DNA from: Protoeuglena noctilucae
Lineage: Eukaryota
DNA length: 64,000 bases
NCBI GenBank assembly: GCA_958009085.1
Contig: OY253679.1
Location: 1 to 64,000 of the forward strand
Reading direction: 5' to 3'
Of this stretch, positions 1 through 51,579 are shown piece by piece. The notes beneath the pieces are model-generated. The model saw only the letters and a list, made by a program, of their open reading frames with translations, did no database searches and had not been told where the DNA came from. A program made the translations under genes and the position numbers. Each line of letters opens with the position of its first letter. Positions within the stretch are counted from its first letter, which is position 1.

Positions 1-245
1 ACCTAACCCTAACCCTAACCCTAACCCTAACCCTAACCCTAACCCTAACCCTAACCCTAACCCTAACCCTAACCCTAACCCTAACCCTAACCCTAACCCT
101 AACCCTAACCCTAACCCTAACCCTAACCCTAACCCTAACCCTAACCCTAACCCTAACCCTAGCCTAACCCTAAAACTGACCCTAACCCTGCCCTAACCCA
201 AAAAAACTAACCCTAACCTAACCCTAACCCTAAAACCTAACCCTG
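1..245. repeat. Telomeric array (CCCTAA)n = TTAGGG type; perfect to ~160, degenerate to ~245
   Basis: Direct reading: uninterrupted CCCTAA units from base 1, then variant units (CCCTAG, CCCTGC, CTAAAA). The C-strand at the 5' end is the expected orientation for a left chromosome end. Confidence 0.98.
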
Positions 246-10865: not shown

Positions 10866-13800
10866 TCATGCCCTGCCGTCGTTGCCCAACCCCAGGACGT
10901 GGGTGCGGTACATGCCGAGTGCCCAGATCGGGAAGATATTCCTGCGGAGGATTCAAACCGGGGACCTCTTTTGTTCTGCACTAGTTCAGAGTAGCTGATC
11001 ATGGGTTGCCACTGCCACTCCAATCCCCTCGCCTGTAGTTGGAGTAGCTGATCATGCAGTTGCGGTTGAATACCCCGATGATCTCCTGCTGCGGCCAGTC
11101 CCCGTCGCTGCACTGGGAGCGGAGGAGGAAGCGGGCGGCCGCGTCCAACGGGCGACGGTCCACGCGGTGGTAGCCGGCCTGGAGGGGGAGAGGAAGAGAG
11201 CGATGATTATAATAGATTGTGTGATAATGACATGTGCGGTTTTATGAATGGTGTCAGATAATGCGACGGTCCACGCAGCGGTAGCCGGCCAACAGTCCTG
11301 TGCATTCCCAATCCATCCCACCTCAAACACCCCATGTCATCTCATCTTACCTCCATGAGTGCCAGCATGGCCCAGGCCGTGTTGACCACGTGGCTCCTCC
11401 CGTCCGGCAGCTGCGTGTACTCCTTGTCTTGCGATGAGAGGTACGACTCGCCCCAGCCGCCGTTGTCCCTGGGGGGATGGGGGAGGGATGGGGTTAGAGG
11501 GAGTGGGTTGGAAGGGGGGAGTGGGTAGTGTTCTCTACAATCGTATCATCCACTCAGCACTCCCGTCAAAGGCCCTTTCCCCTCCCACTCCCTCACCTCT
11601 GCTTGCTGAGGAGGAAGTTGACAGCATCAACCACTTATTCACGCTCACCCCACCCCCCACTCCACTCCCTCACCTCTGCTTGCTGAGGAGGAAGTTGACC
11701 GCCTTGCGCATGTGGGCGCTGCTGTCGTAGCTGAGACCCAAAGCTGCCAGGCACGTGCACCCGAACCACCCCGCGTAGGTGAAGCACACGCCCCAGGATC
11801 CGTACCATGATCCATCGGGGCGCTGGGAAGACTCGACGAAGGCACGGCCGCGGCTGGGGGGGTGGGTACAGAGCGGGGTAAGGGTGAGTGGGGTGAGGAA
11901 GTGATTGGGGGGTGAGGGTGAGTGCGAGGGGTATACATGTCAGTGGGGTGACTGCATTGCCTTGGTATCACGTGCGTGGATTACATGATAGCAATTGCAA
12001 TAATACTGTTACCCATTAACCCCCCACTCACCGCAGCGCCGCGTGGATCTCCCTGGCCCTGTGCCTGGGGAAGCGGTCGCGGAAATAACACAGCGCCGTC
12101 ACACACGCGGTCGAGCATTCGACGTAGGAATAATCCACGATGATGTCGCCGAAGGTCTCCGCGGGGTTGAGGATCTCCAGCGCGTGGAAGGACCTGGTGT
12201 TTTCGTACGTCGCCCACCCCCCGTCCGCGTTCTGATATGACAGAATCACGTTCACGCACTCTTCCAGGCGACTGGGCGGGATGTGCTCCCCCACTTGGTC
12301 GGGCGGGTACTTGAGCATGGCCAGTGCTGCCTTGAGCCCCTCGGAGGAACAGTCGCTGATGGGCCAGCCGTGGTCTTGGGTTGAGAAGGGCCACGCGCCG
12401 TAGCTGATATGGCTGGGAGCGGAGGGGGAGAGGGGTTTTAGAGTGAGAGTGGTGATAATGAAATGTGATGGTGATAATGAGATGTGATGGTGCTATGGTC
12501 AGTGGTGGTCTTGGGTTGAGAAGGGCCACGCGCCGTAGCTGATGTGGCGTGGGGGGGGGGTGAGGTGGGGTGGGGTACAAAATAGTGTTGGTAATAACAA
12601 TAACAATAGCAGCATCTTGAGAATACTAATAATATTAATATTAAATAAATATAATGGTGGCAACACGGACTTAAATATCACTCATCAGTATTATTATTGT
12701 AATTGATGACAACAGATGCAATACATCACATATGCAACAACCGCACCCAACAACTCACCGGTACGCGTCCCTGAGGGGCTCCTGCGCCTCCGTCATGACC
12801 TGCGACCTCTCCAGGTAGGCGTGTGCCTTGCGCATCATGGGCATGAAGTGGGCAAGGATGTCGGAACCCACCGCGTCGAAAGCCTGGGGGAAGGGGGTGG
12901 GGATGTATGTATATTCAATAATATTAATATTAATAAGTATTTTTCATATGGAGGGGTGCTCAGCTGTGGCGCAGATGTAACTGGCATGGAACTGGCTTAT
13001 ACTCATTTTGATACTGTATTCGATAGCATCACGAACATGGCCCCTCGCCTGCACCGCGAATGCCGTGTCCCACAGCTGGCTGCCGTTGTATCCGGTCATC
13101 TTCAGGCCGTCCTCCGCCAGCCACAGGTAGTCTGCGTGGGCATGGTGGGTGGAACAATTACTATTATGTTTTATCGAGCGAAGTATAACGCTCACTAAGT
13201 GTGCTATCTATCTCTCTGCAAACCCTGGTAACCCCCCCACCTTGCACCCCAGGCAAGCGCTCTTCACCCACATTCAACACACCCCCCACCCACACCCCAC
13301 CCACCCACACCCCTCCCACTCACCTTGCAGCCGCGGCAGGTGTTTCTTGAACGCCAGCCCCGTGGGGTCCTCGAAGTAGCAGCAGAGCATGTTGATGACC
13401 TTGTTGACGGGGCCAATGTCGATGTAACGCGTGTTCTCGTCCTCGTAGTGCACCAGCCGCATGACCTCGGCACATGCGCGGTCGCTGGGTGGGAATGGAG
13501 AGGGGAGGGGCATTATAGCAAGAAGTAAGTAATGACGAAACAACGCTGGTGCTGTTAAGACGACTGCCGAGTGCCGCGTGCACCCAACGCATGGCAGTGT
13601 TCATCATTATTAATGTAATTACAATCATCATTACTATTAATGTCACTATCATTCCCCACCCACGCATATCCACAACTCACCGTATCCACTTGAGGGGCCC
13701 CCTCAGCAGCGGCTCCCCCACCCAGTGCAGCGTCCACCACAGCACGTCCTGCACCATGGGGTGGGGGTAATACAAATCCTCCTTGGCGCACGTGTTGCGG

Positions 13801-16059
13801 GCCTTGTCCCAATCGACGGCGTCGTAGGGAGTGGGGAAGAGCTCCTCGCTGCGAGGTAAGGGGAATAGTTGGAGTTGGATAGTACAATAATATGTAGATG
13901 GGATTTGTCCCGATCTATATCATCTAAGGGCACTTTCATGCTGAAAGTATATCTACTCGTTAACGCACTCACCGCAGCGACATGACGAGGGGGGTGATGG
14001 GCCCCGTGCCCCGTGGCTCCCTTGGCGTAGACGTAACACAGTATGCATTGTTATTGCTATCTATTATATAGTTAGTATAACTATCACTCACCGCAGCGAC
14101 ATGACGAGCGGGGTGATGGGCCCCGTGGCTCTCTTTGCATACAAATAGCACATGGGGAGGTAGACCATGCGGCAGTGGCACCAGAAGCGGCCGGGGTGCA
14201 AGTAGCCGATGCCCGTCCACTTGCTGAGGGAGGGGAGGGGGTGTCCAACATGAGTGGGGTGAGTGGAGTGGGGGTGAGTGAGAGATGGTGAGGGAGTAAG
14301 AGAGTGGGGTGGAGGTAGCCGATGCCCGCTTACTTGCTGAGAGAGGGGAGGGGGTGAGAGATGGTGAGGGTGGTGTGCAAGTAACAGATGCTATCTCCTT
14401 TACCATGACCCGCATATCACACCCCCCAACACAACCCCCACCTGTATGGCAGCAGCCACGTATCCACAAACACTCACAACAACCCCCCCCCCCCCCCCCC
14501 CCCCGCCCTTCACCTGTACGGCAGCAGCCACATTTCCGGGGGCAGCGGGTTCTGCCCCTCCCACTCGTAGCACCCCAGCACGGACAGCCAGAACTTGCCC
14601 CACGAAGTGCACGCCACCGCCCCTCCCCTCTCGTGCATCCAGACGCGCGCTTTGGACATGCAGGGTTCGTCCTGCGACACCCCCAGAATCCGAAGCGCGA
14701 CGTAGTTGAGGCAGGTGCCGAACATGGTCGAGTGACCCTCGATGTGCAGGCCGTAGCCGCCGTCGGGGTTCTGGTGATTCAGCACGTAACGAACCATCTC
14801 GTGGCTGGGGGTGGGGGGGGGGGGGGGGGGAAGAGGGGTTTGGTGTTATTATTACTTGTAATGTTTGGTATTATCAGCTATATTGATAGAGTGGCGGGCC
14901 GCAACGTGGCTGGGGACAGGGGGTGCTGAGTGTATGTTATTGTAATTGTCATTATCACCAACGTTTGATCGACTAGCGCATCATTACCAATACTAACCAC
15001 CATGCCCCTCCCACTCATCACCCCCTCACCGCTGCGCCTGCCCCAGCACCTCGTCCATCGTCCCCGTGACATAGCATGCAATGACCATGCCAGGCATGAG
15101 GAACATGGGCCCCCCGTAGTCGCCGGGGAAGTGGCCATCATCCTGCTGGAGAGTGGAATACATGGAGAGACCGGCACGCAGGGAGCGCTCGACCTGAGAG
15201 TTGGAGATGAGGGGGGTGTGGTTGTGAGGGTGTGAGTGGAAGTGTTGGTGCGTGGACAGATGCGCACGCAACGTACGCTGGACCTGCGCTGTCCATGTCC
15301 TTTACACAAAACATCCCCACCTGTCCCCATCCCATCCCCCCTCACCTGCGCTGCCGTGGCTGCCCCCTTGTCCGGCACGTCCGAGGTGTCTCCATTCAAT
15401 TACGACACATCCCAGCATATCCCCCATTTCACTCTAATCCATCAACTCATCCCCCTCACCTGTGCCGCCGTGGCTGCCCCCTTGTCCGGCACGTCCGAGG
15501 TGTCCACGCGCGGGGCCTTCCACCCCCGTGCCTCGGCGCGCCTCCGCATCTGCAGTCGGAGCATCTCGTCCGAAGAGTGCTTCTGGCGATCGCGGTGGGA
15601 GGCGAAGTGGTCGCGGAGCCTGGGGGTGGGTGGGGTGAGGGGTGGGGGGGTGAGGGAGGTGGGTGCGGCGGTCACGGCGGGGGTGAGAGACAGCGCATCA
15701 CCCCCGATGCACCACATGCAAAGTGGAATTGAATGGGCGTGTCTTCGCTCGCATCGCAGAGAGCACATGACATGATAACCACGCTCCGTTGCATTTCACG
15801 CAATACACTGGATCCACATGACCCGCTCAACCCAGCCCCTCTCTCACCTCTCGACCTCCGCGCGCTCCTCCTCCGTCCCCGCGCCCTCCTCGAAGACCCA
15901 GACCTGCCGTCCGACGAAGTTGTTCAGCGTGGTGAGGTGCGCGCTGCCCGCCGCGGACTCCTGGGCGCACTTGAGCGTCCACATCCCCGCCGGGGCCGCG
16001 GCGCGGGACGCGCCGTTCGCCGCAGCGTGGCTGAGCGCTTTGCCTCCGCCGCTTGGCAT
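10866..16059 (-). CDS. CAS1: Cycloartenol synthase (2,3-oxidosqualene cyclase), multi-exon
   Basis: [88 protein letters not shown] (His and Ile typical of cycloartenol rather than lanosterol synthases), [13 protein letters not shown] and [11 protein letters not shown]. Confidence 0.96.
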
Positions 16060-20039: not shown

Positions 20040-23000
20040 ATGGGCAGCGCGTCGCTTCCGCCCGTCCCCTCCACGTCGGGCCGTGCCCCCGCGTCGTCCC
20101 CGCCCCGCCGCTCGCCTCCTCCGCGCGTCGCGGTGCAGAGTCCCCGCCGTTTCCAGCACCTGATGGCGCTGCGCAAGGCGGGGCTGGAACGCGAGCTCGG
20201 GAAGGGCGTGGAGGTCAAGGGGCGCGTCGTGCATGACATTCGCGACACCGGTGACCGCCGCGATGCGCTTTGGGGATGCTCTGTGTGCTGTGTACCTCCA
20301 TGGCTACCTTATCTACCGTTTCTCGGCCCTTTTGCGGTGCAGTGCGCGACCGTTGGAACGCGCGCGAGATGGACGGGGCGGAAAAGGAGGAGCAGCGGCG
20401 CAGGGACGGCGCGGGGCCGGGCCTGGAGCTCCGAGACGCCAGGAATAAACGTCGCGCAAGTCCTCCTCGCGCCCCGGACGCCTTCATGGCCCCGCTCGCG
20501 ATTCAAGAGGCGCGGCGCAAGCTGGTGGGGCGGGAGGGCGACCCGAAGGGCATTCTCCCCACGGCGCTGTACGCGACGCTGCACGGGATGCGCCAGGAGG
20601 CGAAGGACGCGGAGAGGGACGTGAGGGTCGGGAGAGGGGGGCTGCGGCGCGCGGTGGAGCGCGCGAATGGGCCGATGGATATGGCGGCAGTGGGGCAGGG
20701 GGGTCGGGCGGTGGGATGCCCGGGCATCCTACTGCCGCAGGGGTGAGGGGGTGGTGGGCGGACTGGGTAGTGGTGTGTATGTGTCGATTGTGTACTGATC
20801 ACTAGCACATGGGAGCGATGCATGGTGTCAGTCATCTCACGCATTGTTCCTCACACCATCGCAGGGTTCTGGGAAATGGGGAGTCCGCGATCGTCTCATG
20901 CTGCGTCAACACCAAGCGGCGGCTGCTGCTGACCAGCGACGACAAGCAGCTGTGCTACTATGCGCCCGACAGACCCGTGAGTGGGGTGGCATGGGTGCGG
21001 GAATGGGTGAAGTGCGAAGTGAAGAGGGAAGTAACAGTTACAGTTACAGTAACACTAACAATATAATATAATATAATATTTTACGCTCATTCGTCATTCT
21101 TAACTCAGGTCCTGTCGGTCCCGCTCCCCCCCGGCACCACCACGCGCCACCTGATGTACGACCGCGTGGCGGACGTGGTGTTTGCGGTGCGCGGCGAGCA
21201 CAAGATTCTGACACTCCACCCGCGCCAGTTGACACCCCTGGGCATCCCGAAAACGTCGGAAGACGCCGTGCTGTGCGCCGCGATTGGTATTAAGCAAAGA
21301 GTGGTGGTGACGGGGCACGCGAAGGGGGTCATCACGGTGTGGCGCATTCATGACCCGGAGTTGCTGGGGAGGCCGTCGGCGGCGTCGGCGGCGTCGGTGC
21401 GGCTGGTGGCGACCCAGGTGAGGGGATGAGGGTTGTGGTGGGAGGGAGGGTGGGTGCGGCTGGTGGCGACGCATGTGGCATAGATAAACATGACAAGTTA
21501 TATGATGAGTACTTATTAGCTACGGATGATATGACAGTACAATGTATTAAGAGTAATATCACGCCCACGTCTGCCCTTGCAGCACCTGGAGCCCCCCTCC
21601 GGGGTCACCGAGGGCCACTGGGTGTCTGAGATCATCGTGACTGAGGGGGATATGGAGTGGGCGATGGCGGCCGTGGACACGAGCGTGCACCTGTGGGACC
21701 TGAGGAGGGGGGCGCTCGTCATGCGCATGGAGGTGAGGGGGTGGATGGTTGTAGAGTGAGGGGGCTAGGGAGGGGTGCGATGCGTCGCGGGGATGTGGGG
21801 ACTAAGGGAACAGGGATGCCAGCTAAGCGTTATGTTGTAAGCAAACAGGTTTCGATGTTAATATTATTATTATGCATTCCAATCCCCCAGTGCCTGCACG
21901 ACCTGCCCATCACGAGCCTGTCGTTCGATGAGGAGGCCAAGCACCTGGCGACGGGGTCCTCCGATTGGACGGTCCGGGTCTGGGATTTGAAAAAAGATGT
22001 CATGGAGCTGACCGTGGCGGCGCTGGTGGCCGAGGACAAGAGGGCCACGCTCGCGGAGGTGACAGGGGGGGGGGAAGGACGTGGGGGGTTCTGGCTAGTA
22101 AATAGTAATAACTAGTAGTTATATTGGGGACTATACAAAGGGTGGTGCTGGTGGCCGAGGACAAGAGGGCCACGCTGGCGGAGGTGAGGTAAAGGGTGCA
22201 GTCGATGCGGAGTTACAATTACTACAATTATAGCTAGTATTATCATCAGTAACTCAATCCGTCGCATATCACAAACACTCCCCACTCCCACTCCCACCCC
22301 AGACCCTGGCCTCCCACCGCGCCCCCGTGACGAACGTGCTGTGGCACCCCACCTCGCGCGTGCTGCTGTCGTCTTCCGAGGACGGATACCTGCGAATGTA
22401 CGACGGCAAATCGATCGAGGAATGGGACAGTTTACAGTTAGTGCAAGTGGGCATGGCGGGGACGTCCGAGTGCGGCATACCCACAGCGGGCGACGAGCTG
22501 CCAGAAACCGTCCGGCTGTCGTTTTTGAATATCGTCGACGCGCACGCGGAGGGGTTTTACGTGGCTGCGGCGGTGGGGCCGCGGGTGGCGTTCCTGGACG
22601 TGCAGCCCGGGAAGCGGTTTCTGGCGGGGTTGCCCCAGCCGGCGGTGCAGCTGCACCTGAGGGGGCACGCGGCGCCGGCGGGGTGGCAGGAGGTGAGGGG
22701 ACGGGTGGGGGGGTTGATTGAGGAATGGGGTTTGTTGTTTGTTGATGGGCTTGTGGTGGAATGGGAGGGTCGGTGGGGGTGGGGGCAGTGGTGGCGGGTG
22801 ATTGCCTGGTGTTAAAACGATAAACGTAATAACGATTTCGAGTGAAAGATAATCACTGTGTAATTATATTGACATAAAATAAATAAATAAAGATATTATA
22901 TTTGATAACAACAAACAACTCCCCCCCCAGGGCCGCCCCTGGACTCCCGACGTCTTCGTTCTGGACGAGCACGGGGGCATCAGCGTGTTGGACACCCGCA

Positions 23001-26000
23001 CCGGATCCTGCAGCGTCGAGTTTCAGACGCAGAGCCGCAGGATTCTGGCGGGGGGGCAGGGGAGGGTTGACCCCACGAGGGAGCTGCCCTTCTGGTTCCG
23101 GTGAGGCTGTTTCTTGGTTTGAGAAATGGGAATTGAGAAACGATAATATCATGTTTGAGTATTTATAGAATTAGATGGCCATGCCGCGCAGTGCAAGCAT
23201 GCCTCAGAGATGCGGGGGTTTCCAAATGTTGTTAATTGCTATAACTACATGAAATGATAGCATAGCTGGTATTCCAAGTATCGATGTTTCTCCGATTCCC
23301 ACCCCCCAGGGCCTCCCGTGCGGGCGCGGACGTGATAACGTGCTGTCTGGTGCTGGAGCACGAGGACGAGGTGTACACGGGGTGGTCGCGCGGGGGGTTG
23401 GAGGTTCAAACCCTGCGGCCGTCGGGGAAGGGCTTTTTGGAGGACCTGGCCATCCGCAAGGCAGACTACCTGGCAGAGCACCCCGTCAACCGCGAGTACG
23501 CCGTCACTTGTTTATGTCGCATACAGCCCCGGGCGCTGGCCGACATGGACATGGCAGGGCTGCACCGGTGAGCGGTGGTTATCAGTTATTATAGTGTTGT
23601 TATAAATAATACAATGGTGGCACACGTTTCTGTGTTGCATCCAGCCGCGGGCGCTGGCCGACATGGACATGGCCGGGCTGCACCGGTGAGGATGAGAGGA
23701 GTCATAACCTGTATTGGTTAATGTGAAGTGGATGACGGCGCATACAGCCACGGGCGCTGGCCGACATGGACATGGCGGGGCTGCACAGGTGAATTATCTC
23801 CATCAATACTGCAACTAACGCTGCATAGTTATGGCAATAATATATGTACATACTCACCTGATCGTCACTACTAGTAATGCTAGTCCCCACACCCTTTCCC
23901 CTCAGGGCCCTCCGCAAGCTCCGGGACTTCGAGGGCCATCGGTGGAACGACGGGGGCAAATCCAAAAACTCAAATTCGAGAGGGCAAGCGAACGCGGCCG
24001 GCGACGCGATGCGGGGGTTCCTGCAGATCATCCGGGCCGCCAGGGCGGGGAGGCGGTGGAGGGAGCGGGTGCGGAAGCCCATCGTGGTGTACGGCACCTC
24101 CGACGGGCTGCTCGTGGTGACAGACGTATGCTGTTGTTATTGTTATTTTTATAATTAGTAATGTATTATTATTGGTTCTTTTTGATAATGTGCGCGTGAT
24201 GATGCAAGGGCTGTTCGTGGCTAGTGCCCTTCCCAACACGCGCCTGCATCCACATGCCAGCGTTACCGATCATAATACAACCATAACCATTATATATTCA
24301 GCGTTCTTTATTCCTTATTTAACCCCTCCCCTTCTCCCCCAGATGGCCACCCGCCAGCGTAACACACGCCCCCACATCGTGGAGGCCCACGCCTCCCCCG
24401 TGGTCCAGGTCATACCCGTGGACGTCCGATCCTCGATCGTCTCCCTTGATCGCGATAACCATGTCAAGATATGGGGCTTCGTGCCCCCCCAGGCGCTGCC
24501 CATGACCCTCAAGACGAGGGCGCTGCCGGGCATCCTCGCCCCCATGATGCAGTTCCAGTGAGGGGTTATAACGGTTGTGACTATGATATCTTTTCTAGTT
24601 AAATTAATCTGTGATGACTGATACCGACCCCATAATGCAGTAAACGCTTTGTTTCAAATTTATCATAACCTCATTCCTTTATCTACCATCCACTACTGCC
24701 TACTCCCCCCGCAGGGTCCCCCTCCAGGCCATCACCTGCGTCGCGTTTGTATTAAGACACAACGCCCCGCCTGCACAAAGCCGCAAAGTGCAGCGACCGC
24801 AGACGGAGATCAGGGTGAGGGGGTGGTGGGTCGGGGATGATGAATGAGGGGTGCTGTCACTGCGGAACGTGATGTGGGTGCATGCGGGGGTGAAGGTGAG
24901 GGGCGTGTTGGCGGGAATATTTGAGGGGTGCTGTGGGTGTGGAGCGGGGCAGAGTGACGTGGGAAGGGCGTGGGAATGGCGAGGGGTGCGGGGTGCAACC
25001 CCTGCATAACCTCCATTGAATCATTGAAAAGACACACCGCTATGGCTGGTATATAATTATAACAATTACAAGATATCATAACTCACCCTTTTTATCCACC
25101 CCCCGCAGCCCCACCCAGTGTCTGCCGCCCGCCCCCCCCGCGCCTCCGCCCCGGGACTCGCACTGACGAGGAACGACGCTGTCACTAGCAACCCCAGCAC
25201 TGTCAACGCCAGCACTACTACCACTGCCATCGCCACCATCAACTCCAGTGTTAGCGCGGGCGTGGCCGAGGGCGCTCCCACCGACCCCACCGCCCCCCCC
25301 ACCGCTGTGTTACCGTCATCTCGCCCGGTGCTGCAGCGTCGATTGATGGTGATTGAAACGCACACGGGCGCATTGGAGAGGCCTGCGGACAGGGAGTGGG
25401 TGCTGGAGATGTACCTGGGGGGTGGCACGGGGGACGTGTGCCACGTGGAGGTGGCGGGGATCGAGAGCCCCACGCAGGAGGTGAGGAATGGTGTGGATAC
25501 TAGATTTACTATAATTAATGATAAGTAAACATGAGTTGCTTGTATGGAATGGTTGAGACGGGTGGGATGGGTTCATAAGTAAGCAGCATGCCAAGATGTA
25601 CATGTTTATGATTCTTTAAGCTATCTTTATGTAAATCAATAACTATCGCTCACTCCTTCCCAGGAAGTGAACGAGGTCCTCAGCGCCATGCCCCACAACA
25701 CGGGCAGCATGCCCCCCCGCCCCCCCGTCCGCCACAACGACAGCTGCCGCGTTCTGAGGACGCTGATGCTGCACCGGAGCAGGGTGGCGGCGATCGCGGT
25801 GTCCGACGCGCTGATCGCGAGTGCGGACATGAACGGGGCGGTGGTGGTGTGGGACGCACACAGCCGCAGGGCGCTCGCGCAGGTGAGAGTGGGTGTGGGG
25901 AGGGTCATTGATGTTAGTAGCTGTAAGTGATTGTAACGTGGGGTTGATCAATGAACCATTTAATGGGATCCATTCTATGTTCGCGTCTAACTTTTGACAC

Positions 26001-29538: not shown

Positions 29539-31697
29539 ATGGGCGCCCCGTGCCGGTTGCGCTGCGCCGGGGCCATCCGCGCGCGGGGAGGCCGCAACTG
29601 TCCGCGCCTGCATCGTAAGGACCACTTATTGATCCATCAGTGGTCGCGATATTCCCGCGCGACCCCCGCACGCGCTGTTACCCGCGAAACTCCCCCAGCA
29701 GCCCAAGTCCGCGTCCTTTTCGCGGCCGGCGGGACCGGCGGCCACGTCTTTCCCGCAATCGCCGGTACGAGCTTGCATCCGCACAGCTTTCCGTGCCCAT
29801 CCGGGCCCGCGAACCGCAGAATCGACGCCGCGGGGCCTGTCTGCAACGCGATGCATCCCCGCACTTACTCCCCCGCAGTGGCGCAGGCGCTGCAGCGGCT
29901 CGCTCCCGGCGCAGTTCGAGTGGACTTTGTCGGTGGCGATCGCATCGAGAGATCCGCCGTCCCCAATGCGGGCTTCCCGTTCCACCGCGTCCCTGCCCCC
30001 GCCCTGCGCCGTCCCTGGCGTTCACTCTCCAACGCCCTCCTCCCCTTCCGCCTCGCCTGGGCTCTGATAAGGCGAGAAGAATGCATTGAGCATACGATAG
30101 GTTTGCGCAGGAGCGCATGTCTGGGGAGGTGCCTAAGAGCCGCAGAGCAGTGCTATCTATCTGTAACCGGTATCCATTCCATCTCCTTCTTCCCTCAGGT
30201 GCCTAGCCCTGTCTCTTCGCTTGCGCCCCGACGTGGTGGTCGGAACGGGCGGATTTCAGTCCTTTCCTGCTTGTGTAGTGGCCGCATTGTGTGGTGTGCC
30301 CGTCGCCATTATTGAGCCCAACGCCCTGCCCGGCCTGGCCAACCGGGTCCTGTCTCGCTTCGCCAAAGTGGCATTTCTGGCATTTCCGGCGGCCGAGGCG
30401 GGGCTGCATGGGCGGTGTGGGGTACGCGTGACGGGGTGCCCTGTGAGGGAGGAGGTGGCGGCGGTGGGGGTGGGATTGGGGGGGAGGAGTGAGGGGGTGG
30501 GGGGTGGCAGGTGGGGGTTGGGAAGGGGTGGGGGGTGAGGTGGGGTGAGGGTGGCAGGGATGCGGGGTGGTGGGGGAGGGTGGCAAGCCGTCAGTTTTTT
30601 GTTCCTCAGAGTAAGAGTGCATTTCATCCATTTAATTCTATTTCCTCTCCTCTGATCTCCCACAGTCCGCATATACTCGTGCTGGGTGGGTCTCTGGGCG
30701 CCCCACGGCTGACGGAGGCGGCGGCGGGGGCGATGAGGCGACTGCAACGTCGATACCCCGATTTGCGAGCCACGGTACAGACGGGGAGGGGAAGGGGGAG
30801 GGGTGGTTTGGGTGATTTGCAAGCATCAGTGCAGGCGGGGCAGGCGGAGGGGTGGTGCGTGAATGGGGCGGGAGAGGGCACAGGTGAGTGGGAAGGGTAG
30901 TGTTGTTTGGCGTGGGCAAAGAATGGCAGGTAATGATAAGATGCGACGTCGATGGCTTAACAACCCTTGTAACCCCCCTCTTGCGCGTGCAGGGGAGGTG
31001 ATGTTTGTGGAGTTTGTCGATGATGTGGCGGGGGCGCTGCGGAAGGCGAGCCTGGCCATTTGCAGGGCGGGGGCGGTGGCGTGTGCCGAGCTGGCGTGTG
31101 CGGGTGAGAGAGTGGTGGGTGGGGTGAGTGGGTGGGGTGAGTGGGTGGGGGTTCCAAAATGCAACAAGAAAGTGGGCATGTTTTCATCTCTACACTGCAA
31201 TACCTTTGCAGGCTGCCCGTCCATTCTCGTGCCCTCCCCTCACGTCACCGACAACCACCAAGACGCGAACGCGACTGCGATGGCATCGGCAGGGGCAGCG
31301 GTGGTGGTGAACGAGGGGCCTGGGATGGAGGATGCGTTGGTGGAGGTGTGCGGGGAGTTGCTGAGCGATCCTGGTGAGGAAAGCATTGATGAAATGACGT
31401 GTGCGTGGCTGGGTGCGGATGCGGGAGCGGTGTTGTGTGTGCGCAGATCGATGACTCATGCCCAATGACAGTCATGCTATCTTATCAACAGTCACTATAC
31501 TTATCACTCGCCTCTCTCACTCCCCCTCAGCCCGCCTCTCCGCCATGTCGCATCGTGCTCTGGCGGCCGCGCGGCCCAAAGCGGCGCTCGACATCGCGGA
31601 GGCGGTGCTGGAGATGGCGGGGCGGGAGACTGGCAGTCGGGGTAATACTGGTAATATCGGTGATCCTGGTGATTGGAGTGGTGTCGTTACGGCTTGA
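29539..31697 (+). CDS. murG: MurG (lipid I N-acetylglucosaminyltransferase, GT28), intron-containing, with an Arg/Ala-rich N-terminal extension
   Basis: AAGGTGGHVFPAIA, RPDVVVGTGGFQSFP, IEPNALPGLANR, LVLGGSLGA, QTG, EFVDD, CRAGA..AEL..G.PSILVPSPHVTDNHQDANA. Introns restore the frame. Confidence 0.95.
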
Positions 31698-31840
31698 AGC
31701 GCTTGGTATGTATTGCAGGAGATGGCGGGGTGGGAGACTGGCAAGCGTGGTAATGTTGGTGATCCTGGTGACTTGAGTGGGATCATGATGGCTTGGACTT
31801 GGTATGTACTGCTGCTGGAGATGGCAGGGAGGGAGTCTAC
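31608..31840 (+). repeat. ~100-bp degenerate tandem repeat (two and a partial copies) spanning the murG stop codon
   Basis: GGAGATGGCGGGG.GGGAGACTGGCA..GGTGATCCTGGTGA..CTTGGTATGTA recurs at ~31610 and ~31718, with a partial copy at ~31817. Confidence 0.85.
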
Positions 31841-37900: not shown

Positions 37901-40900
37901 AACAACAACAACAATGCAGCCAACGCGCAGAGTGGGGGCAACGCTGCGCAGAGTGGCGGTGGCAATGCGGGTGGCGGTGGGGGTGCCACCGCAAGTGGCA
38001 TCCCCCACCCCCCCAGCGCCCGGGGCGGCAGCGGCCGCTCCGTCGCCGGCGCCTCGGACCAGAGCACGAAAGGCGACCCGGGCCACAGCACGAAGGGCGA
38101 CCGGGTGCCCAGCGCGGCCTCGGGGCGGTCGGTGGGGTCGTCGACCGGGGAGGCATTGCTGGCCTTGGAGGAGATGGGCATCGACCTCGACGACGTGGAC
38201 CCCGCCAAGCTCTTGAAAGTGCAGACTCTGCCGCCCATCTTCCACGTGCGCATCCACCTGGACGCCGAGGAGGACGCGCTGGCCTTCTACCCGGGGCCGC
38301 CCGGTGAGTGGCGGCGGCGATAGTGATGGCAAGTATATAGAGCGACAGTTGTATAGTATTATATGCGTAGTCACTGGTAAGTATAATAACAGTGTCTGGA
38401 TGCGGAAGAGGACGCGCTGGCGGTCTGTCCGGGGCCGCCCGGAGAGTGGGGTTGTGGTGTTATTACATCACTAGTAATGCTAGTAATTATATACTTATAG
38501 AGTGGTCGCATTATATATAATATACAAATACTGGTAAGTATAGAAATGGTGGCGATGCGTTTGGTCTGGGTGCGGAGGAGGACGCCGTCTGTCCGGGCTG
38601 TCGGGTGAGTGGTGATAAGAGCTGGTAGTAATTTGGGTAATAATTTATAGTTATTATAGAAGGTGCAATATGGGGACTATCACGCTGGGTAAGAGTACCA
38701 ATAAGTAATGCTAGACATTATAACAATGGGCTAAGCGAAAGGGGTGGGCAGAGTTTCGCACCACGCTCCCCATTCTCACATTCCCTTGACATAATCTTAT
38801 ACGCCTTATCACTTTCGTTGTAATGTCAATGATTGTCGCCGATATCGTCTCATTATCCCTATACCGATGTCATGAATTTTCTGATATTATGGAATATTAC
38901 GGCAAAATACACAATCCAACCCCCCCCCCCCCATCCCAACCCTCCCCCGCAGAGGTCCTCGAGGTGCTGGAGAACGTGATGCAGGGCTTCCTGGAGGTCA
39001 TGGACAGCGTGGGCCGCCTGCTGGGCTCGCAGGACCTCGCGCATTTCACCAGCGAGTCGCTGGAGTCCCCCGCCGGCGCCGCCCCGGCCACGTTCGTCGA
39101 CCAGATCAACGACGAGGTGCACGAGGACAACGTGCTGGGCGTCAAGGCGCTGCTGCACCAGGCGTTTGAGCGGGCCGAGCGCTTCAAGGCCTCGTTCGAG
39201 CCGCTGCGCGCGCGGCTGATGGGATACCGCGCCGTGACGCAAGCGCGCATGGAGGAGGAAGTCAAGGAGGGGGCGCGCGACCTGCAGCGCTTCGACGACG
39301 ACTGGGCGGAGTACGCGGCGGCGGTCGCGGCGGTCAAGGCCATCACTGACGAGGACCGCCACGGGAACGTCCTCCTGGACCTGCGGCCGATGAAGGAGGC
39401 GCTTCTGCCCTTCCCGGAGCGCTGCGTCGCGGAGATCCAGCGCCTCCTGCCGCGTCTCGCGTTCTCCTTCTACCAGGAGTTTGTCGCGGACGTGCACGCC
39501 GTGCAGCGGCGCCTGGCGCGCGCACCGGCCTCCGTGGAGGATTTCGTGGATTATTTGGAGGTTTTGCAGGACACGGTGGGCCGGCGGGAGTCCTTCGACG
39601 AGCGCAACGCGCTGGTGCGTTCTTACTACGATTTGATCGACAAGTTCGGCATCCGTGTCGAGGCGCGCGAGCGCGCGGCGTTCCAGACGCTCGGCCCCGA
39701 CTTCCAGCAATTTATGGAGACGCTCGAGGCGGCCGAGGCGGCCAAGGACGCGCTCATCGTGCAGTTCACGGGCGACCTCGACGCCCAGGAGACCGAGATG
39801 GTGGCCGAGGCCACGCGTGTGCGCAACGCGGCGCAGGAGGAGGCGGTCCTCGACGCTTCCTCGGACATGGACAAGGCGCTGTCGGTCACCACGCGCCTGG
39901 CGGAGGAGGTGGCGGAGCTGAAGGCCCAGGCGTCGCGCGTGGCGCGCTACCGCCAGCTCTTCCGGCTGCCCGAGCGCCGCTACCCGGAGCTGGAGGAGTC
40001 CGCGACCGAGGTCGAGCTCAAGCACCTCATGTGGCAGTCGCTCCAGGAGTGGGAGGCCGTCACGGCCGAGTGGGAGGCGTCGCCGTTTCATGCGATCGAC
40101 ACTCTGGCGGTCGAGGAGACCCTCGCCCGGTTCGTCAAGACGGTCAACCGCATCGACCGCAACTTGCCGCCCAACAAGGTCGTCGACAGGCTCAAGGACC
40201 GCGTGGGCAGGTGAGGGGGGGATGGGTAATGGGTGGCAGTGTGGGGGCGGGGTGGGGGTGGGGTGGGATTCATGGGTCAGTAGTATGGTTGGGAGGGTAG
40301 CGGTGTGTACGAGGTTGGGGGGATAGGATGAGCAGGTGTGGGGAAGCTAGTGTGGGGGTTAGGGGGACGGTAAGGGGGGTTAGAGGGAAGAGAGGGAGGG
40401 GTACGGCAATGGGGTGGGGGGTGCGTAGCGAGGGGTGTGAGAGTGGGGGGATGGGGCGAGGGGTGAGGGTGGAAGGGGTTTTAAGGGCTGCCTACAAGCA
40501 AGTATTAACGATGAGCATTACTCCGCATCTCTCACCATGCGCGGCCCCACTCTGCGACCCTTTTCCACTGCGCTGTCGATTTGCATCCCTTGTGACCCCA
40601 CCCATCTCCACAAAAGGGACACCCTGTTATTATTCGCAAAATAATATTTGCAAATCTATCCATCCATATGTCCACATCTATAATTTTTGTAATATTACAT
40701 TTGTAATTGTGTTTTTACTTACATGTATCATGGTACAGGTCCTCATACCCCTCCCTTTACTCCTAATATCTATTTCTCTGCATATAATATCTTTATCATA
40801 TCTGCATATATCTATATATTTGTACCTCCATCTGTGCCAAGTTACCAAGTATCTAACCCCTCCCCTCCCCCACCCCACCCCCAGGTACAAGGAGATCGTG

Positions 40901-43900
40901 CCCGTGGTGGTGGCGCTCCGCAACCCGAACATGAAGCCGGAGCACTGGTTTAAGGTGTCAGAAACCTTAAACCACGCGATGGACCCCGACGACGAGCGCA
41001 TCACGCTGGAGGGCGTGCTGGCGCTGGGCGTGATGTCTCACGCCGACGCGATGGTCACGGTGTCGACCGAAGCCACGCAGGAGGCGCACCTGCTGGGGAT
41101 GCTCAACAAGATCAAGGACAAGTGGAACGCGGTGGACTTCGCGATCAATCCATACAAGGACACGCGCGACGTCTTCGTGTTGGGCGGCGTCGAGGACGTG
41201 GTCACGACGTTAGAAGACTCGATGATGACGATGATGACCATCACGTCGAGTCGGTTCGTGTCCGGGATCCGCGACCACGTGGACCGGATGGAGTCGGACC
41301 TTCGCCTGTTCAGCGACACGCTTGACCAATGGCTGGAGGTGCAGAAGACGTGGGTGTACCTCGAGCCGATCTTCCAGTCCAACGATATCCGGCAGCAGTT
41401 GCCGCAAGAGAGCCGCAAGTTCGCGCAGGTGGACCTGCAGTTCAAAGAGATCATGCGCCACGCCCGGGAGCGGCCGAGCGCGCTGCAGGCCGGGACGACC
41501 CCGGGCTGGCTCGAGAAGCTCTCCAAGTGCAACGAGATGCTCGAGGAGATTGAGAAGAACCTCGAGACGTATTTAGAACAGAAGAAGATGGCGTTCCCGC
41601 GGTTCTACTTCTTGAGCAACAACGACCTGCTGGAGATCCTCTCCCAGGGCAAGGAGCCCCAGGCCGTGCAGCCGCACCTGCAGAAATGCTTCGACGGCAT
41701 CGCGCGGCTCGTGTTCGGCGACCAGCGGCAGAGCCCGGACATCCACGCGATGGTGTCGGCCGAGGGCGAGGAGGTCGCGCTGGGCAACTCCCTCAAGGCC
41801 CGCAACAACGTCGAGCAGTGGCTGGGGCAGGTGGAGAAGGACATGAAGGCCACCGTGCGCCGGCTGGCCAAGCACGCGTGGACGACTTATGCCGAGTCGC
41901 CGCGCCCAACCTGGGTGCTGGCGCACCCGGCGCAGCTGGTGCTGTCGGTGTCCAACGTCTACTGGTGCCACGCGGTGGAGTCGTGCTTCGATTCCCCGCG
42001 TCCCCCCGCGGATTTGGAGCTTTTACATCGCTCCAACGTCCGGCAGCTGTCGGAGCTGACGGCGCTGGTGCGGGGCGACCTGAGCAAGCTCGAGCGCAAG
42101 ATACTGGTCTCTCTCATTACCGTCGACGTTCACAACCGCGACATCGTCGAGGAATTGTTCAAATCGAACGTGGAGCGGGCGTCCGAGTTCCGGTGGCAGA
42201 TGCAGCTCCGGTACTACTTCGACCGTGATGCGGACGACTTGGTCATCAAGCAGGTCAACGCGGCCTTCACGTACGGCTACGAGTACCTCGGCGCGCAGCC
42301 GCGGCTGGTGGTGACGCCCATGACCGACCGCTGCTACATGACGCTGACGGGCGCGTTGCACCTCACGCTGGGGGGCGCCCCGGCCGGCCCGGCGGGCACC
42401 GGCAAGACCGAGACGACCAAGGACCTGGGGAAGTGCCTAGGGGTGCAGTGCGTGGTGTTCAACTGCGGCGACGACCTGAACCACCGGTTCATGGAGACGT
42501 TCCTGTGCGGGCTGTGCCAGTGCGGGGCGTGGGCGTGCCTGGACGAGTTCAACCGCATCGACATCGAGGTGAGGGGGGGTGGGGAAATAGATATAGTGAA
42601 TTATTATAGAATAGTACATGTATTTGATAGTAAATATAATCGGCATAGTTCAACCGCATTGAGGTGAGGCGGTTGGTGTGGAGGGAGGGACACGCGTATT
42701 ATAATATATAGTGGATAAAAGGAATTTAATGGAATATAAGGCTATGGCATGGATGGAGGGCGATGCATCTCATTACTGCAACATGGGTGCTGTATTTATT
42801 ACTGTTGCGCTCCCATGCCATTGTTATCACCGTTTTTGTCATTGCTTAATGATAAAGCGCTTTTTTGTTTTTGCTGCTTTACTATATATTCAATCTCCTT
42901 AACACATTTGCCCTAACTAAATATTCCTTCGATCATCGCTGTCCTTTTCTCACTGCCCTCTCTTCTTCGCCACCCCACACCCTCACACCCCTCCACACCT
43001 CCCCACCCCCCCAGGTCCTCTCCGTGGTCGCCCAGCAGCTCCTGCAGATCCAGAGCGCCCTCCGCGCCCGCCTGCCCGAGTTCCTCTTCTGCGGCCGGCA
43101 GATCTCGCTGCAGCCGTCGTTCGGCATGTTCACGACCATGAACCCCGGGTACGCCGGGCGCACGGAGCTGCCCGACAACCTCAAGGCGCTCTTCCGCCCC
43201 GTGGCGATGATGATCCCCGACTACGCGCTCGTCGCCGAGGTCATGCTCTTTTCCGAGGGTTTTGACGACGCCAGGTCGCTGTCGCGCAAGATGGTCAAAC
43301 TCTACAAGCTGTCCTCCGAGCAGCTGTCGCAGCAGGACCACTACGACTTCGGCATGCGCGCCCTCAAGTCCGTGCTCGTGCTGGCCGGGGCGCTGAAACG
43401 TGCTGCGCCGGGTCTGGACGAGGACGTGGTGTTGGTCCGTGCGATGCGCGACTCCAACGTCCCCAAGTTTTTAGAGGATGACGCGAGGCTCTTCAACGCC
43501 ATCGTCCAGGACCTGTTCCCGGGCCGCAACGTTCCGGACCAGGACTACGGGGAGCTGGACCTCGCGCTTCGTGCTACGGCCGAGTCCCAGCGGCTGCAGG
43601 CCAAGGACGCCTTCGCCCTCAAAGCCGTGCAGCTGTACATGACGCTCTCGGTTCGATTCGGCGTCATGCTCGTGGGGCCCACGGGGGGCGGCAAGTCCTC
43701 CGTGTGGCGGACGCTCAAAGAGGCCATGACCCGGCTTAGGCGCGAGGGCAGCCGGGACCCCGAGTACCAGCGCGTGCACGCGTTCCCGTTCAACCCGAAG
43801 GCCATCTCCAAGAACGAGATCTACGGCTACGTCGACAAGCTCACGGGGGAGTGGCGCAACGGCCTCGGGGCCACGCTAATCGCCGAGGCCAAGAATGACC

Positions 43901-46900
43901 CACGCCCCGACCGCAAGTGGGTGGTGTTCGACGGCCCCGTCGACGCCCTGTGGATCGAGGACATGAACACGGTGCTGGATGACAACTGCACGCTGTGCTT
44001 GGCCAACGGGCAGCGCATCAAGCTCAACCCGGTCACCATGCGGATGCTCTTTGAGGTCGAGGACCTCAAGGCCGCGTCGCCGGCCACCGTCTCGCGATGC
44101 GGGATGGTCTACGTGCCCGAGGCCACCGCGGGATGGGAGGCGTTCGCGCGGTCGTGGCTGGCGCGGCTCGGGGAGCTCGTTTCTGACGAGGACCGGTCCG
44201 TCAAAATCCCGGACGAGACGGCGGAGATGCTCTGGGCGATGCTGTCGAAGCATGTCCCGGCCGGGCTCGCATTCGTGCGGCGAAAGTGCACCGAGCAGGT
44301 CCCGTCCGCGGACATCAATCGCGTGGCATCGCTCACAAGGTGGTTCCAGGCGCTCGTGCGGCCCGGCAGCGGCCTCGACCTCAACGCCCCGACCGCGGAC
44401 GTGCGCCTGCAGCTGCGCAACGCCTTCGGGTTCGCGTTCGTCTGGGGCATCGGCGGAGACGTGGACTCGTCGCACTGGGACGCGTTTGACACGTTTGCGC
44501 GCGAGCAGCTCGAGGGCGACGTCATGTGGCCGCCGCGGGGCATCGTGCACGACTATTTCGTCGACACCTCTCGAGATTTCACCATGCGCGCGTGGGCGGA
44601 GGTTGTCCCCGCGTTCCAGTACCGCCCCGCCGCGCCGTACTTCCAGCTGTTGGTGCCCACGCTCGACACCACGCGCACCGCGCGCCTGCTCGCGCTCTCC
44701 CTGCGCATCCAGCGCCCGATGCTCATCACGGGCCTCTCCGGCGTCGGCAAGTCCGCGGTCGTCTCCAACCTGCTGCTAACGGGCGACGGCGCGGGCGGGG
44801 CGTCGCTGCTGCCCATCTCCGTCAACTTCTCCGCCCAGACCACCTCGCTCTCCACGCAAGAGCTCATCGAGGGCAAGATGGAGAAGATGGGCAAGCGACT
44901 GGTGCCCCCGTCCGGCAAAAAGATATGCCTCTTCGTCGACGACCTCAACATGCCCGCCCGCGAGATGTGGGGAGCGCAGCCACCTTTAGAACTCCTGCGC
45001 ACGATCCTCGACCTCGGCGGCATGTACGACCGCAAGAAGCTGTTCTGGAAGGAGCTGGTCGACGTGACGCTGGTGGCCGCGTGCGCCCCGCCCGGCGGCG
45101 GCCGGCAGCCCATCTCGGCACGCGTGCTGCGGCACTTCACCATGGTCCACATGCCGCCGCCCAGCGAGGACGTGATGCACCACATCTTTTCCAAGATCCT
45201 GGGGGGGTTCATGGACCACTACTTCCCCCCCGACCTGCGCGGCGTGGTGGACCCGATGGTGAAGGGCGCCGTCGACATCTACCGGCGCATCTCCACCGAG
45301 CTCCTCCCCACGCCCGCCAAGTCCCACTACACGTTCAGCCTCCGCGACGTGTCCAAGGTGTTCCAGGGCATCCTGCTCGTGCGCCATGGGCAGTGCCCGG
45401 ACCGAGAGGCGCTCACGCGGCTGTGGGTGCACGAGACCATGCGCGTCTTCCACGACCGGCTCGTCGACGACCCCGACCGGCAGTGGTTCCGGGATCTGGT
45501 CTTCGAGATGCTTAAGGGCAAGTTCCACGTCGCCGAGGGGCCAGAGCACTTCTTCGTCCAACGCGACATCATGTTCGCCGACTTCCTGCGCATGGGCCTG
45601 CCCGCCGAGGAGCGGGTGTACGAGGAGGTGCAGCCTGGGGTGCACGACATGGACAAGATCCTGACTTCCTATTTGGAGGAGTTCAACGACATGGGGCAGC
45701 AGCCGATGCGGCTGGTGTTCTTCGCCGACGCGATACGGCACATCTCGCGCGTCGCGCGCGTGCTGCGGCAGCCCCGGGGCAACGCCATGCTCGTCGGCGT
45801 CGGGGGCTCCGGGAAGCAGAGCCTGACGCGGTTCGCCTCGTTTCTGGCGGAGTACCAGTGCCACCAGATTGAGATCACGAGGCACTACGGTCCCCCTGAG
45901 TTCCGAGAGGACCTCAAGCATTTGTACAAGATCGCCGGCCTCGAGGGGTCCCCCGTGGTGTTCCTGTTCACCGACAACCAGATCGTGGACGAGTCGTTCG
46001 TCGAGGACCTGAACAACGTGCTCAACTCGGGCGAGGTGCCGGGGATGTACCCTGCGGACGAGAAGGAGGCGGTGCTGACCGAGATGCGCGAGTACTGCCA
46101 GGAGAACAACCTGCCTCTGACGCGGGACGCGATATGGTCCGCGTTCATCGACCGCGTGCGCGACAACCTCCACGTCGTGCTGTGCATGAGCCCCGTGGGC
46201 GCCGCCTTCCGCACGCGTTGCCGGCAGTTCCCGTCGCTGGTCAACTGCTGCACGATCGACTGGTTCAGCGAGTGGCCGCGCGAGGCGCTGCACTCGGTCT
46301 CAACGCGCTTCCTGGCCGACCTGCCCCTGGGCGACCGGGACATCAACGCGGCCCTCGCCGACCTCTGCGTCTCGGTGCACGTGGACGTGGCCGCGGAGGC
46401 GCAGGTGTTCTACGAGGAGATGCGCCGCCGCTTCTACACCACGCCCAAGTCGTATTTGGACATGATCGACCTGTACACGCAGCTGTACGACGCCCGCACG
46501 CTCGAGATGGACCAGGCGCGCGACCGGCTGAGCCGCGGCCTGCAGAAGCTCGACGAGACGAACGTGAAGGTGGCCGAGATGGAGACGGCCATCACGGAGC
46601 TGCAGCCGGTGCTGCAGGACCGGCGGCGCGCGACGCAAGAGCTGATCGAGCAAGTCACGCGCGAGCAGGAGGAGGCGAAGGAGGTGGAGGAGGTGGTGGG
46701 GAAGGAGGAGGCGCAGGTGAAGGAGAAGACGATGCGTGCGAAGGAGGCCAAGGACCAGGCGCAGATGCAGCTGGACCAGGCCATCCCGCTGCTGCAAGAG
46801 GCCGAGACGGCGCTGGGGGCGCTGAACAAGTCGGACATCAGCGAGGTGAAGGGCTTCAAGAGCCCGCCGGAGCTGGTGATGCTGACGATGGAGGGCATCA

Positions 46901-49900: not shown

Positions 49901-51579
49901 ATATCTTTATTATATAATATATATAATTAATATCGACATCTCTTTTCCCCCTTTCTCCCCCTCCCCCCAGGCCCTCGATGACAAGTTCTACATCACGCGC
50001 GACGGCCTCTACCAGGCACCCCACGACTGCAGCAGGGGCCGGGTGCTTGAGTATCTGAAGAACCTGCCCGCCACGGAGGGCCCCGAGGTGTTCGGGATGC
50101 ACGAGAACGCAGACATCACCTTCCAACTGCAAGAGACGAGGAGGGCCGTGGACGCGATTCTGGCGATGCAGCCGCGGGTGGCGGCGGGGGCGGGGAAGCG
50201 GCCACCGGCCGAGGTGGTGGCGGCGCTGGCGGCGGAGATAGGTGAGTGGGGGATGAGGAGTCCGATAATAGGGGAACGAAGGTGTTGTCAGTGGTAGATG
50301 GGAAAGCGGCCGCTGGCCGAGGTGGTGGCGGCGCTGGCGGCGGAGATCGGTGAGTTGGGGAGTTATATGAAGGGTTTTGGTGATTGGCATGAGATATTAA
50401 TGGTAGATGGGGATGGGTGAGGGGGGTTGTGGTGTGGTGGATGGTGTGAGGTGGTGGCGGCAGAGAAAGGTGAGCAAAAGAGTTATATGAGGAGGTTTAA
50501 TTACTGGGAATTAGATGTGAATGATCGATGGGTGTGGTAGATGGGGTGCAACGAATGGGGCTGACTGCAGATGCCCGTTCTCAACCCCCCTCCCCTTCCC
50601 TCCCCCCCAGAGGCCTCCCTCCCCCCACCCCTCGACCTCTCCCTCGCCCCCTCCAACCCGGAACGCAACCCCTTCGCCCCCATGCCATCCGGCCACGACA
50701 ACTCATTGGGCATCGTGCTGCGGCAGGAGGCCGACCGATTCCAGGCCCTGCTCTCCGCCATGCGCACGTCCCTGCAGGACCTGCAGCGCGCGATCCAGGG
50801 ACTGGTGGTCATGAGCGGCGATTTAGAGGCCATGTTCGGGTCCTTACTCGACAGCCGCGTTCCCGCGTTGTGGGAAGCGAAAGCGTACCCCAGCCTCAAG
50901 CCGCTGGGCGCCTGGACGGCCGACTTCCTCGACCGCATGCGGTTCGTCGCCGATTGGATCACCCGGGGCGAGCCCGCGTCTTTCTGGCTGCCCGGGCTCT
51001 TCTTCCCCCAAGGGTTCATGACGGCGGTATTGCAAAACCACGCGCGCAAGACCCAGGTGCCGGTGGACCGCCTCAACTTCGCCTTCGAGGTGCTGCAGAC
51101 CGACGACGTCGGGGGGCTGGAAAAGGGGCCGACGGACGGGGCGTTCGTGCATGGGCTGTTCTTGGAATCGGCCCGGTGGGACCCGGTGGGAGGGTGCCTG
51201 GCCACGGCGGCGCCACGGGAGATGTACGCGAGGCTCCCAGTCGTGCACCTCGTCCCGCGCGTCGACTACGAGCCGCCGGAGGACGAATACCAGTGCCCGC
51301 TCTACAAGACCAGCCTGCGGTGAGGAGTTGTTATGTGTGGCCAGGCGTTGCGGGCTGCGGGAGGCTGCAGAGGTTGCGGGTTGAGAATGCCGGCACGGGG
51401 AGGGAGAGATGATGAAAGTTGCTGCATCGTCCGTTCCTCACAGGGCCGGCACGCTCAACACGACGGGCCAGAGTACCAACTTTGTGCTGTACATCTCACT
51501 CAAGCTGCCCGAGACGCTCAGCGCGCCGTCGTTCTGGACGCTGCAGGGCGTTGCGGCCCTCTGTGCGCTCGACACGTGA
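34999..51579 (+). CDS. Axonemal inner-arm (single-headed) dynein heavy chain, DNAH6-like
   Basis: P-loops GPAGTGKT, GPTGGGKS, GLSGVGKS and GVGGSGKQ, plus stalk and MTBD. C-terminus CPLYKT..RAGTLNTTGQSTNFV. N-terminal YKPYDLKVV..YTMSAQGVTH..FRLWKGF..WKNYVR resembles the DNAH6 group. The first three exons are tentative. Confidence 0.95.

Follow-up and report, generated by a model that had tools for sequence, protein, structure and literature searches.

In a stretch of 64,000 nucleotides from Protoeuglena noctilucae (assembly GCA_958009085.1, contig OY253679.1, positions 1 to 64,000; hereafter the window), a gene encoding a WD40 protein contains three versions of the same exon end and 5′ splice site, one at the end of the exon and two inside the intron that follows. 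All three spell the same peptide, in different synonymous codons. How did these copies arise, and why should sequence that lies in an intron vary as if it were coding? An earlier note, made from the letters of the window, had drawn attention to the triple and had treated it as a matter of the WD40 gene. Here, we show that the triple is spliced around, and that within the window it is one instance of a process that has acted on many introns, on both their donor and acceptor sides.

Structure of the Triple Array

The three copies constitute one repeat family with 68-nt members (Table 1), in which copies 2 and 3 are 88% and 84% identical to copy 1, respectively. A 36-nt core with one free position matched three times with 0 mismatches, compared to an expectation of 0.00 from 100 shuffles, in agreement with the earlier description of three exon ends that each run into a GTGA-type donor. 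The spacing then given, 119 and 102 bp, was off by a one-base slip: the measured start-to-start distances are 118 and 103 nt. The spacers between the copies are mutually no more alike than shuffled sequence, and Tandem Repeats Finder reported no array at the triple.

Positions 23521-23568, 23639-23686 and 23742-23789 all translate to the same 16 residues, IQPRALADMDMAGLHR. The codons in copies 1, 2 and 3 are ATA, ATC and ATA for Ile, CCC, CCG and CCA for Pro, and GCA, GCC and GCG for Ala, while the Arg codon that is split by the intron begins with CG, CG and AG; these are the variants that had been listed previously. Within the 16 codons, two positions have three different bases, and the other 44 positions, beyond the variable ones, are invariant. 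Copies 2 and 3 differ from each other at four synonymous places and in their donors (GTGAG versus GTGAA) and nowhere else, so the observation that the intronic copies differ only silently over the peptide holds. In copy 2, the coding-like similarity reaches beyond the 16 residues on their upstream side, with Thr ACT/ACG and Leu TTA/CTG.

An internal CAG is located 41 nt from the donor in every copy. As was argued before, a cassette of this length would shift the frame, so that simple inclusion cannot explain the conservation. We rejected cassette or mutually exclusive exons on these grounds (the frame is shifted by one or by two inclusions), and also because there is no GT at the homologous place upstream of copy 1 and no joint of this kind in the RNA contigs. 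Copy 2 is preceded by an in-frame TAA at 23603-23605, and a TGA follows every donor. The predicted RNA fold of 23500-23920 was not more stable than that of shuffled sequences (z = −0.06; 45 of 100 shuffles folded as well), and no inverted repeat involving the copies was found. Copy 3 reads CACAG/GTGAAT and may be compared with a recursive AG/GT site, but it follows a purine-rich stretch, whereas such a site would have a pyrimidine tract upstream; the data for this comparison are contigs, in which splicing intermediates are not visible.

Splicing and Cis Arrangement

The stretch is contained in 12 public runs, of which two RNA runs (X9 and X10) and two DNA runs (X4 and X6) were compared over 22600-24800. 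The joint between 23567 and 23906 was present in both RNA runs, in one contig each. The X9 contig was unbroken over 23309-23566, between joints at 23099/23309 and 23566/23905, and also showed four neighbouring introns of 238, 209, 226 and 157 nt. No joint from donor 2 or 3, or from the 41-nt piece, was found in the assembled RNA contigs of X9 and X10, from which minor isoforms could escape. The exon-contiguous donor at 23568 is the one seen in use, copies 2 and 3 leave with the intron, and the protein is unchanged. The idea that the codon variants might reach the mRNA was therefore not borne out by the assembled RNA. The three donors scored 10.3, 8.1 and 10.6, all inside the range of 6.3-15.3 covered by 16 other donors in the window. 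Since all three score like real donors, the choice of donor is positional and not a matter of strength.

The earlier note had named the presence of three copies in cis as the point on which its reading would stand or fall. The DNA contigs of both runs carry all three copies in cis with zero differing letters. The X4 contig, which is possibly the source of the window, is 26,947 nt long, and that of X6, which comes from another sample, is 2,266 nt; one DNA contig had a depth of 143, without a variant. The longest exact run between copies is 26 nt, which is shorter than the 31-letter words used in assembly and rules out that copies were merged or created through shared words. The upstream exons of the gene contain WD40 repeats (Pfam PF00400, E = 5e-7 and 1e-6).

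Table 1. Positions of the triple array and of other features in the window.
Feature	Position	Strand	Evidence or remarks
WD40-gene exon, 3′ end = copy 1	23310..23567	+	X9 RNA contig; open frame, third-position GC 0.80
Copy 1 (exon end and used 5′ splice site, GT at 23568)	23505..23572	+	reference copy of repeat family D1; donor score 10.3
Intron holding copies 2 and 3 (338 nt, GT..AG)	23568..23905	+	RNA joint in X9 and X10; DNA contigs continuous
Spacer 1, AT-rich, unrelated to spacers 2 and 3	23573..23622	+	local and global alignments at shuffle level
Copy 2 (intronic, intact GTGAG, GT at 23686)	23623..23690	+	repeat family; donor score 8.1
Spacer 2	23691..23725	+	without similarity to spacer 1 or last intron segment
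Copy 3 (intronic, donor GTGAA, GT at 23789)	23726..23793	+	clear homology from 23739; donor score 10.6
Last intron segment, C-rich tract and CAG acceptor	23794..23905	+	sequence and RNA contigs
Next exon, first G completes split Arg codon	23906..24116	+	RNA contigs X9 and X10; reading frame
Donor-type pairs (exon 3′ end and GTGAG; GCGAG in one), n = 8	22022, 38258, 50192, 11585, 13966, 15337, 60981, 62763		self-BLAST
Acceptor-type pairs (C-rich tract, CAG, exon start; copy upstream in intron), n = 5	8851, 11152, 12370, 14193, 62530		self-BLAST
Tandem array of 2.3 units, starting in exon end with GTAAT donor	31606-31835	+	period 108/99 nt, units ~79% alike
Two arrays in dynein heavy chain gene, each with third, more decayed unit	38258-38611, 50192-50482	+	
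ABC-transporter intron with GCGAG donor and two flank copies	62569-62897	-	upstream exon end and donor 62757-62809; acceptor and downstream exon start 62639-62677
Sterol (oxidosqualene-type) cyclase gene, 13 introns of 91-346 nt	10878-15993	-	
CCCTAA (TTAGGG-type) telomere array, ~40 units	1-244		window begins at chromosome end

Exon-Edge Copies in Other Introns

The implication that the triple is peculiar to the WD40 gene did not hold. At 14 more loci in the window, an exon edge and its splice site are repeated 77-139 nt away inside the adjoining intron, and the synonymous-only pattern extends to the class as a whole. Self-BLAST of the window at offsets of 40-1000 gave 20 matches, made up of three from the triple, 13 exon-junction pairs, one array of whole units (at 31606) and three of low complexity. 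In the 13 pairs, an exon edge of 28-75 nt recurs together with the splice motif in the adjoining AT-rich intron, on the donor or on the acceptor side (Table 1). An annotation-free scan with 40-mers yielded 17 clusters at offsets of 50-450, versus 1 and 0 at two control offset ranges; the periods were all within the same 77-139 nt, an offset of 221 being the sum of 118 and 103.

The frequency of such copies was assessed in 18 introns with boundaries from RNA (5) or from alignment to an intronless relative (13). Eight of them hold a copy of their own flank that outscored each of the 306 mismatched flank/intron comparisons, and weaker vestiges are present in several others. In the sterol cyclase gene, own-flank copies are present in 7 of the 13 introns: four have a copy of the upstream exon only, two of the downstream exon only, and one of both. 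The host genes are unrelated, and include the sterol cyclase, an axonemal dynein heavy chain, an ABC transporter and a Na+/H+-exchanger-like gene (so labelled from a reading of its translation) in addition to the WD40 gene. Of 11 intronic donor-type copies, 10 retain the GT or GC dinucleotide, the exception being the second copy at 38258, in which GT has become GA. The boundary of the copy is always 4-12 nt past the GT.

The array at 31606 is the only locus with spacers that align throughout, so that of all the examples of this process it may be the youngest. At 38258, copies 2 and 3 agree in states that the exon copy lacks, which suggests that intronic units can themselves duplicate.

Divergence of Exon-Derived Parts and Spacers

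The exon-derived parts are 84-98% identical between copies, while the identity of the spacers was above that of shuffles in only 2 of 15 pairs. Spacers could still be aligned at 38258 (z = 4.7), between units 2 and 3 at 50192 (z = 13.4) and at 15337 (z = 4.2). At the loci with aligning spacers (31606, 50192, 38258 and 15337), the event is, as judged from these alignments, a tandem duplication of whole units that comprise exon edge, splice motif and intron start.

Over the 15 pairs there are 59 differences, of which 37 are synonymous-like and 22 are of other kinds; 38 of the 59 fall on codon position 3. The synonymous-like share is well above the 25.5% expected at random (P = 1.9e-9), and also above the ≈41% that free drift of the intronic copy, combined with purely silent change in the exon, would give (P = 6e-4). 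Many of the differences are exchanges between C and G, and A/T endings are no more frequent in the intronic than in the exon copies (10 versus 7, in the opposite direction).

A 7-nt insertion, flanked on either side by synonymous-like differences, interrupts the intronic copy at 13966, and in-frame stops occur in two of the five acceptor-type copies. Translation of the intronic copies is excluded by these stops and this insertion, together with the TGA after the donors, the TAA at 23603 and the 41-nt frameshift.

Relatives and Lineage-Specific Introns

The sterol cyclase gene allowed a comparison with relatives, of which 49 loci were found and ten were examined (L001-L008, L021 and L022). There were no junction-type repeats in the ten loci, only low-complexity repeats. 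The closest relative found, L001, is 77% identical over the query exon, has a GC content of 0.75, and encodes the gene in one open reading frame (L001:3051-6878). Since L001 has a single frame where the window has 13 introns, the introns are lineage-specific, a statement that applies to the sterol cyclase gene only. For the WD40 exon, a scan of the JGI metagenomes gave 351 pattern matches, none of them a relative, and none of 94 candidates among longer proteins had E <= 0.001. As no relative of the WD40 exon was found, there is no outgroup for the triple, and because the closest sterol cyclase relative lacks introns, the relatives cannot polarise the changes.

Window and Intron Features

Exons in the window are GC-rich, with a third-position GC of 0.8-0.95, and the introns are sharply AT-rich and roughly 90-350 nt long. 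Many introns begin with GTGAGGGG or GTGAGTGG and finish in a C-rich tract and CAG, and the two ends are partly complementary. GCGAG donors make up 2 of the 16 donors listed. A short motif, AATGGTGGC, recurs in three AT-rich spacers or introns, close to where they end, at 23612, 38545 and 12655. Intron density is very uneven among neighbouring genes: the axonemal-type dynein heavy chain has an uninterrupted 7-kb exon of 2,335 codons (42856-49860, + strand), and genes next to it have at least a dozen introns. At 56560-56759, 200 N in a row represent a scaffold gap or a masked stretch.

Origin and Maintenance of the Copies

The explanation that we favour, with a confidence that is only modestly on its side, is a composite of junction duplication, tolerance by splicing, and maintenance through sequence exchange. 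The part concerning duplication and splicing is near certain; for the exchange part, which we infer, the chances are about even. The triple array goes back to two local duplications in succession, ≈118 and 103 nt in length, that crossed the exon-intron junction; in each unit, 50-70 nt from the end of the exon are followed by a GTGAG-type donor and an AT-rich spacer. Duplications that span a junction do no harm while splicing keeps to the outermost site, as in the array in intron 7 of human F7 (PMC1557585), and so they accumulate, while those elsewhere in genes are removed. The intronic copies would then stay exon-like because gene conversion or unequal exchange keeps swapping short patches between them and the exon copy, which, being under selection at the protein level, would change only silently. 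Such exchange would erase divergence in the homologous piece, but not in the spacers once insertions and deletions had broken their homology. If the population is very large, intronic variants that are harmful when copied into the exon would be weakly selected against. The mostly synonymous differences, often between C and G, would be the residue of exchange and selection combined.

Several points weigh against this explanation. Neither a conversion tract nor a polarised substitution was observed in a comparison that had no outgroup or second strain. Conversion alone predicts a per-site synonymous-like excess of at most ≈2:1, whereas ≈5:1 was observed, so that indirect selection is needed as an extra assumption. 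The spacers, being homologous when they arose, should have been converted along with the copies; 40-70 nt is little homology for conversion to work efficiently; and direct repeats located so close together should be lost by deletion too. The ratio of synonymous-like to other differences is 29:10 in donor-type copies and 8:12 in acceptor-type copies (Fisher P = 0.02), a contrast in codon bias that is predicted by no DNA-level model. Furthermore, minor isoforms spliced from donors 2 or 3 could be missing from contigs, and the divergence sample is small, with 15 pairs from one 64-kb window.

A possible alternative, to which we attach distinctly less belief, is that, in this picoeukaryote lineage, a junction-specific copying process lengthens, and perhaps creates, introns by placing the exon edge and its splice site in the intron again and again, with a period of ≈80-140 nt. 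The copies stranded in the intron would then be under a coding-like constraint, either via splice-site definition or because a constant exchange of sequence with the exon makes them an intronic reservoir of exon variants.

The remaining explanations are, in declining order of weight, a by-product of repair, a direct role of the copies, regulated unproductive splicing, and an artefact or foreign origin. According to the first, which is unlikely, a long staggered break or the repair of a transposon excision during intron making would duplicate the exon edge and splice motif around unrelated AT-rich filler, leaving young copies that are now decaying. This would account for the unrelated spacers in 13 of the 15 pairs, for the copy boundary always being 4-12 nt beyond the GT and for the lineage-specific introns, and it has a precedent in the direct repeats of 4-12 bp in new Daphnia introns, ascribed to staggered breaks (PMC4202315). 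The acceptor-type copies, with 8 of 20 differences synonymous-like, also match the neutral expectation. The donor-type copies, however, do not: 29 of their 39 differences are synonymous-like, compared to the expected 41% (P = 2.5e-5). Decay within AT-rich introns should proceed from G/C to A/T, whereas many changes are between C and G and the A/T-ended codons show the opposite tendency. Nor does this origin sit well with the homologous spacers seen at several loci.

Alternatively, the intronic copies may be selected directly at the level of RNA or chromatin, as pseudo-exons that recruit U1 or SR-type factors for composite intron definition, or as GC-rich islands by which the length of the intron or the positioning of nucleosomes is set. 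The preservation of the GT or GC in all intronic donor-type copies but that at 38258 (with copy 3 of the triple weakened to GTGAA), the donor-like scores of donors 2 and 3, the persistence of the copies beyond that of the spacers, and the narrow range of periods are all in line with such a role. None of these functions predicts variation with a codon period, however; the triple has neither a stable RNA structure nor an inverted repeat with the copies, and decay is evident in many copies, with identity as low as 68%. We therefore regard direct selection as improbable.

Regulated alternative splicing is more doubtful still. Donors 2 and 3, or the 41-nt CAG-to-GT pseudo-exons, would in this case give rise to unproductive transcripts, frame-shifted or containing stops, that control the level of the WD40 protein. 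Each intronic copy does have an acceptor-like CAG and a competent-looking donor, and rare isoforms may be dropped from contigs. Yet no such joint was present in the RNA contigs of the two runs compared, poison exons are not expected to show codon-aware conservation, and a role specific to one gene leaves the 14 loci in unrelated genes unexplained. Finally, although the window comes from a metagenome-derived assembly and the differences resemble those of diverged coding alleles, we give almost no credence to mis-assembled haplotypes or to copies pasted from a diverged homologous chromosome during repair, since independent assemblies of two DNA runs, one at depth 143 and without a variant, reproduce the array exactly, the RNA is precisely spliced around it, and copy identities from 84 to 100% would require many donors of different ages.

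Significance and Comparison with Known Systems

How new introns form, grow and select their splice sites is a long-standing open problem, and recent, massive intron gain is confined to few lineages, pelagophyte-like algae among them. With flank copies in nearly half of the introns checked, the window offers a natural age series of intron growth. The copies also amount to dozens of natural experiments in which donors or acceptors compete for splice-site choice, and could be used to test for indirect purifying selection on non-coding copies, exerted via gene conversion in very large populations. On the practical side, exon-edge copies mislead gene predictors and can yield false calls of alternative splicing.

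Single repeats that span a boundary, and short exon-derived repeats in new introns, are already known. In the open-access articles searched in full text, we found no description of a genome in which many introns carry long, exon-like flank copies that include a splice site, which is not proof that none has been published.

In intron 7 of human F7, the first unit of a 37-bp minisatellite spans the donor of exon 7, the look-alike donors downstream are silent, and the most upstream donor is chosen (PMC1557585). Likewise, the first unit of the triple straddles the boundary and the later units repeat the donor (GTGAG, GTGAG and GTGAA at 23568, 23686 and 23789), and the most upstream donor is the one used according to the RNA contigs, with minor use of the others possible. 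Unlike the F7 repeats, which are uniform, head-to-tail and found at one locus (PMC1557585), only the exon part and the splice motif are alike in the present case, and the spacers are unrelated. The units are also longer, at 103-118 nt, have equivalents on the acceptor side, occur in many genes and diverge in a codon-aware manner.

The newly gained AT-rich introns of Daphnia pulex, for which growth by internal duplication has also been proposed (PMC4202315), resemble those of the window in being lineage-specific and AT-rich among GC-richer exons, with repeats of the adjacent exon inside the intron or at its far end. The exon-derived repeats in Daphnia are 4-12 bp long (PMC4202315), whereas those described here are 28-75 nt, include the whole splice-site motif, lie in mid-intron with a period of 77-139 nt, and stay exon-like.

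Introns can also be created by tandem duplication of an exon segment containing AGGT, in which case the 3′ terminus of the intron is a copy of the upstream exon end, in direct contact with the exon that follows (PMC3265369, PMC4974935). The present arrays share with this model a local tandem duplication within a gene that is neutralised by splicing. In the triple, however, copy 3 ends at 23793 and is followed by 112 nt of unrelated intron before the acceptor at 23905, and the donor itself is part of the repeat. We rejected a Rogers-type AGGT origin because the order and position are wrong, a copy of the upstream exon never abutting the downstream exon.

Introners of pelagophytes and other algae form multi-copy families and are flanked by target duplications of 3-9 bp (PMC9860276, PMC9481584). 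An introner family was rejected for the window, where intron interiors share no sequence: self-BLAST of the AT-rich segments of the 64 kb gave four matches, none of them between two intron interiors. The duplicated flank is 5-10 times longer than any target duplication reported in these sources (PMC9860276, PMC9481584). A target-site duplication around an insert would moreover leave one copy more than there are inserts, whereas each exon copy here has its own spacer, so that copies equal spacers in number; we rejected this model as well. In other respects, the window is like the genomes of introner-bearing algae (PMC9860276, PMC9481584): it comes from a GC-rich marine picoeukaryote with TTAGGG telomeres, and has many lineage-specific introns of ≈120-250 nt, with GT and GC donors and with G-rich and C-rich termini that look complementary. 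Judging by telomere type, GC content and the sterol cyclase relatives, the window would belong with such pelagophyte-type algae. The lineage-specific introns described here are in keeping with the intron-gaining, pelagophyte-type genomes of those reports (PMC9481584, PMC9860276).

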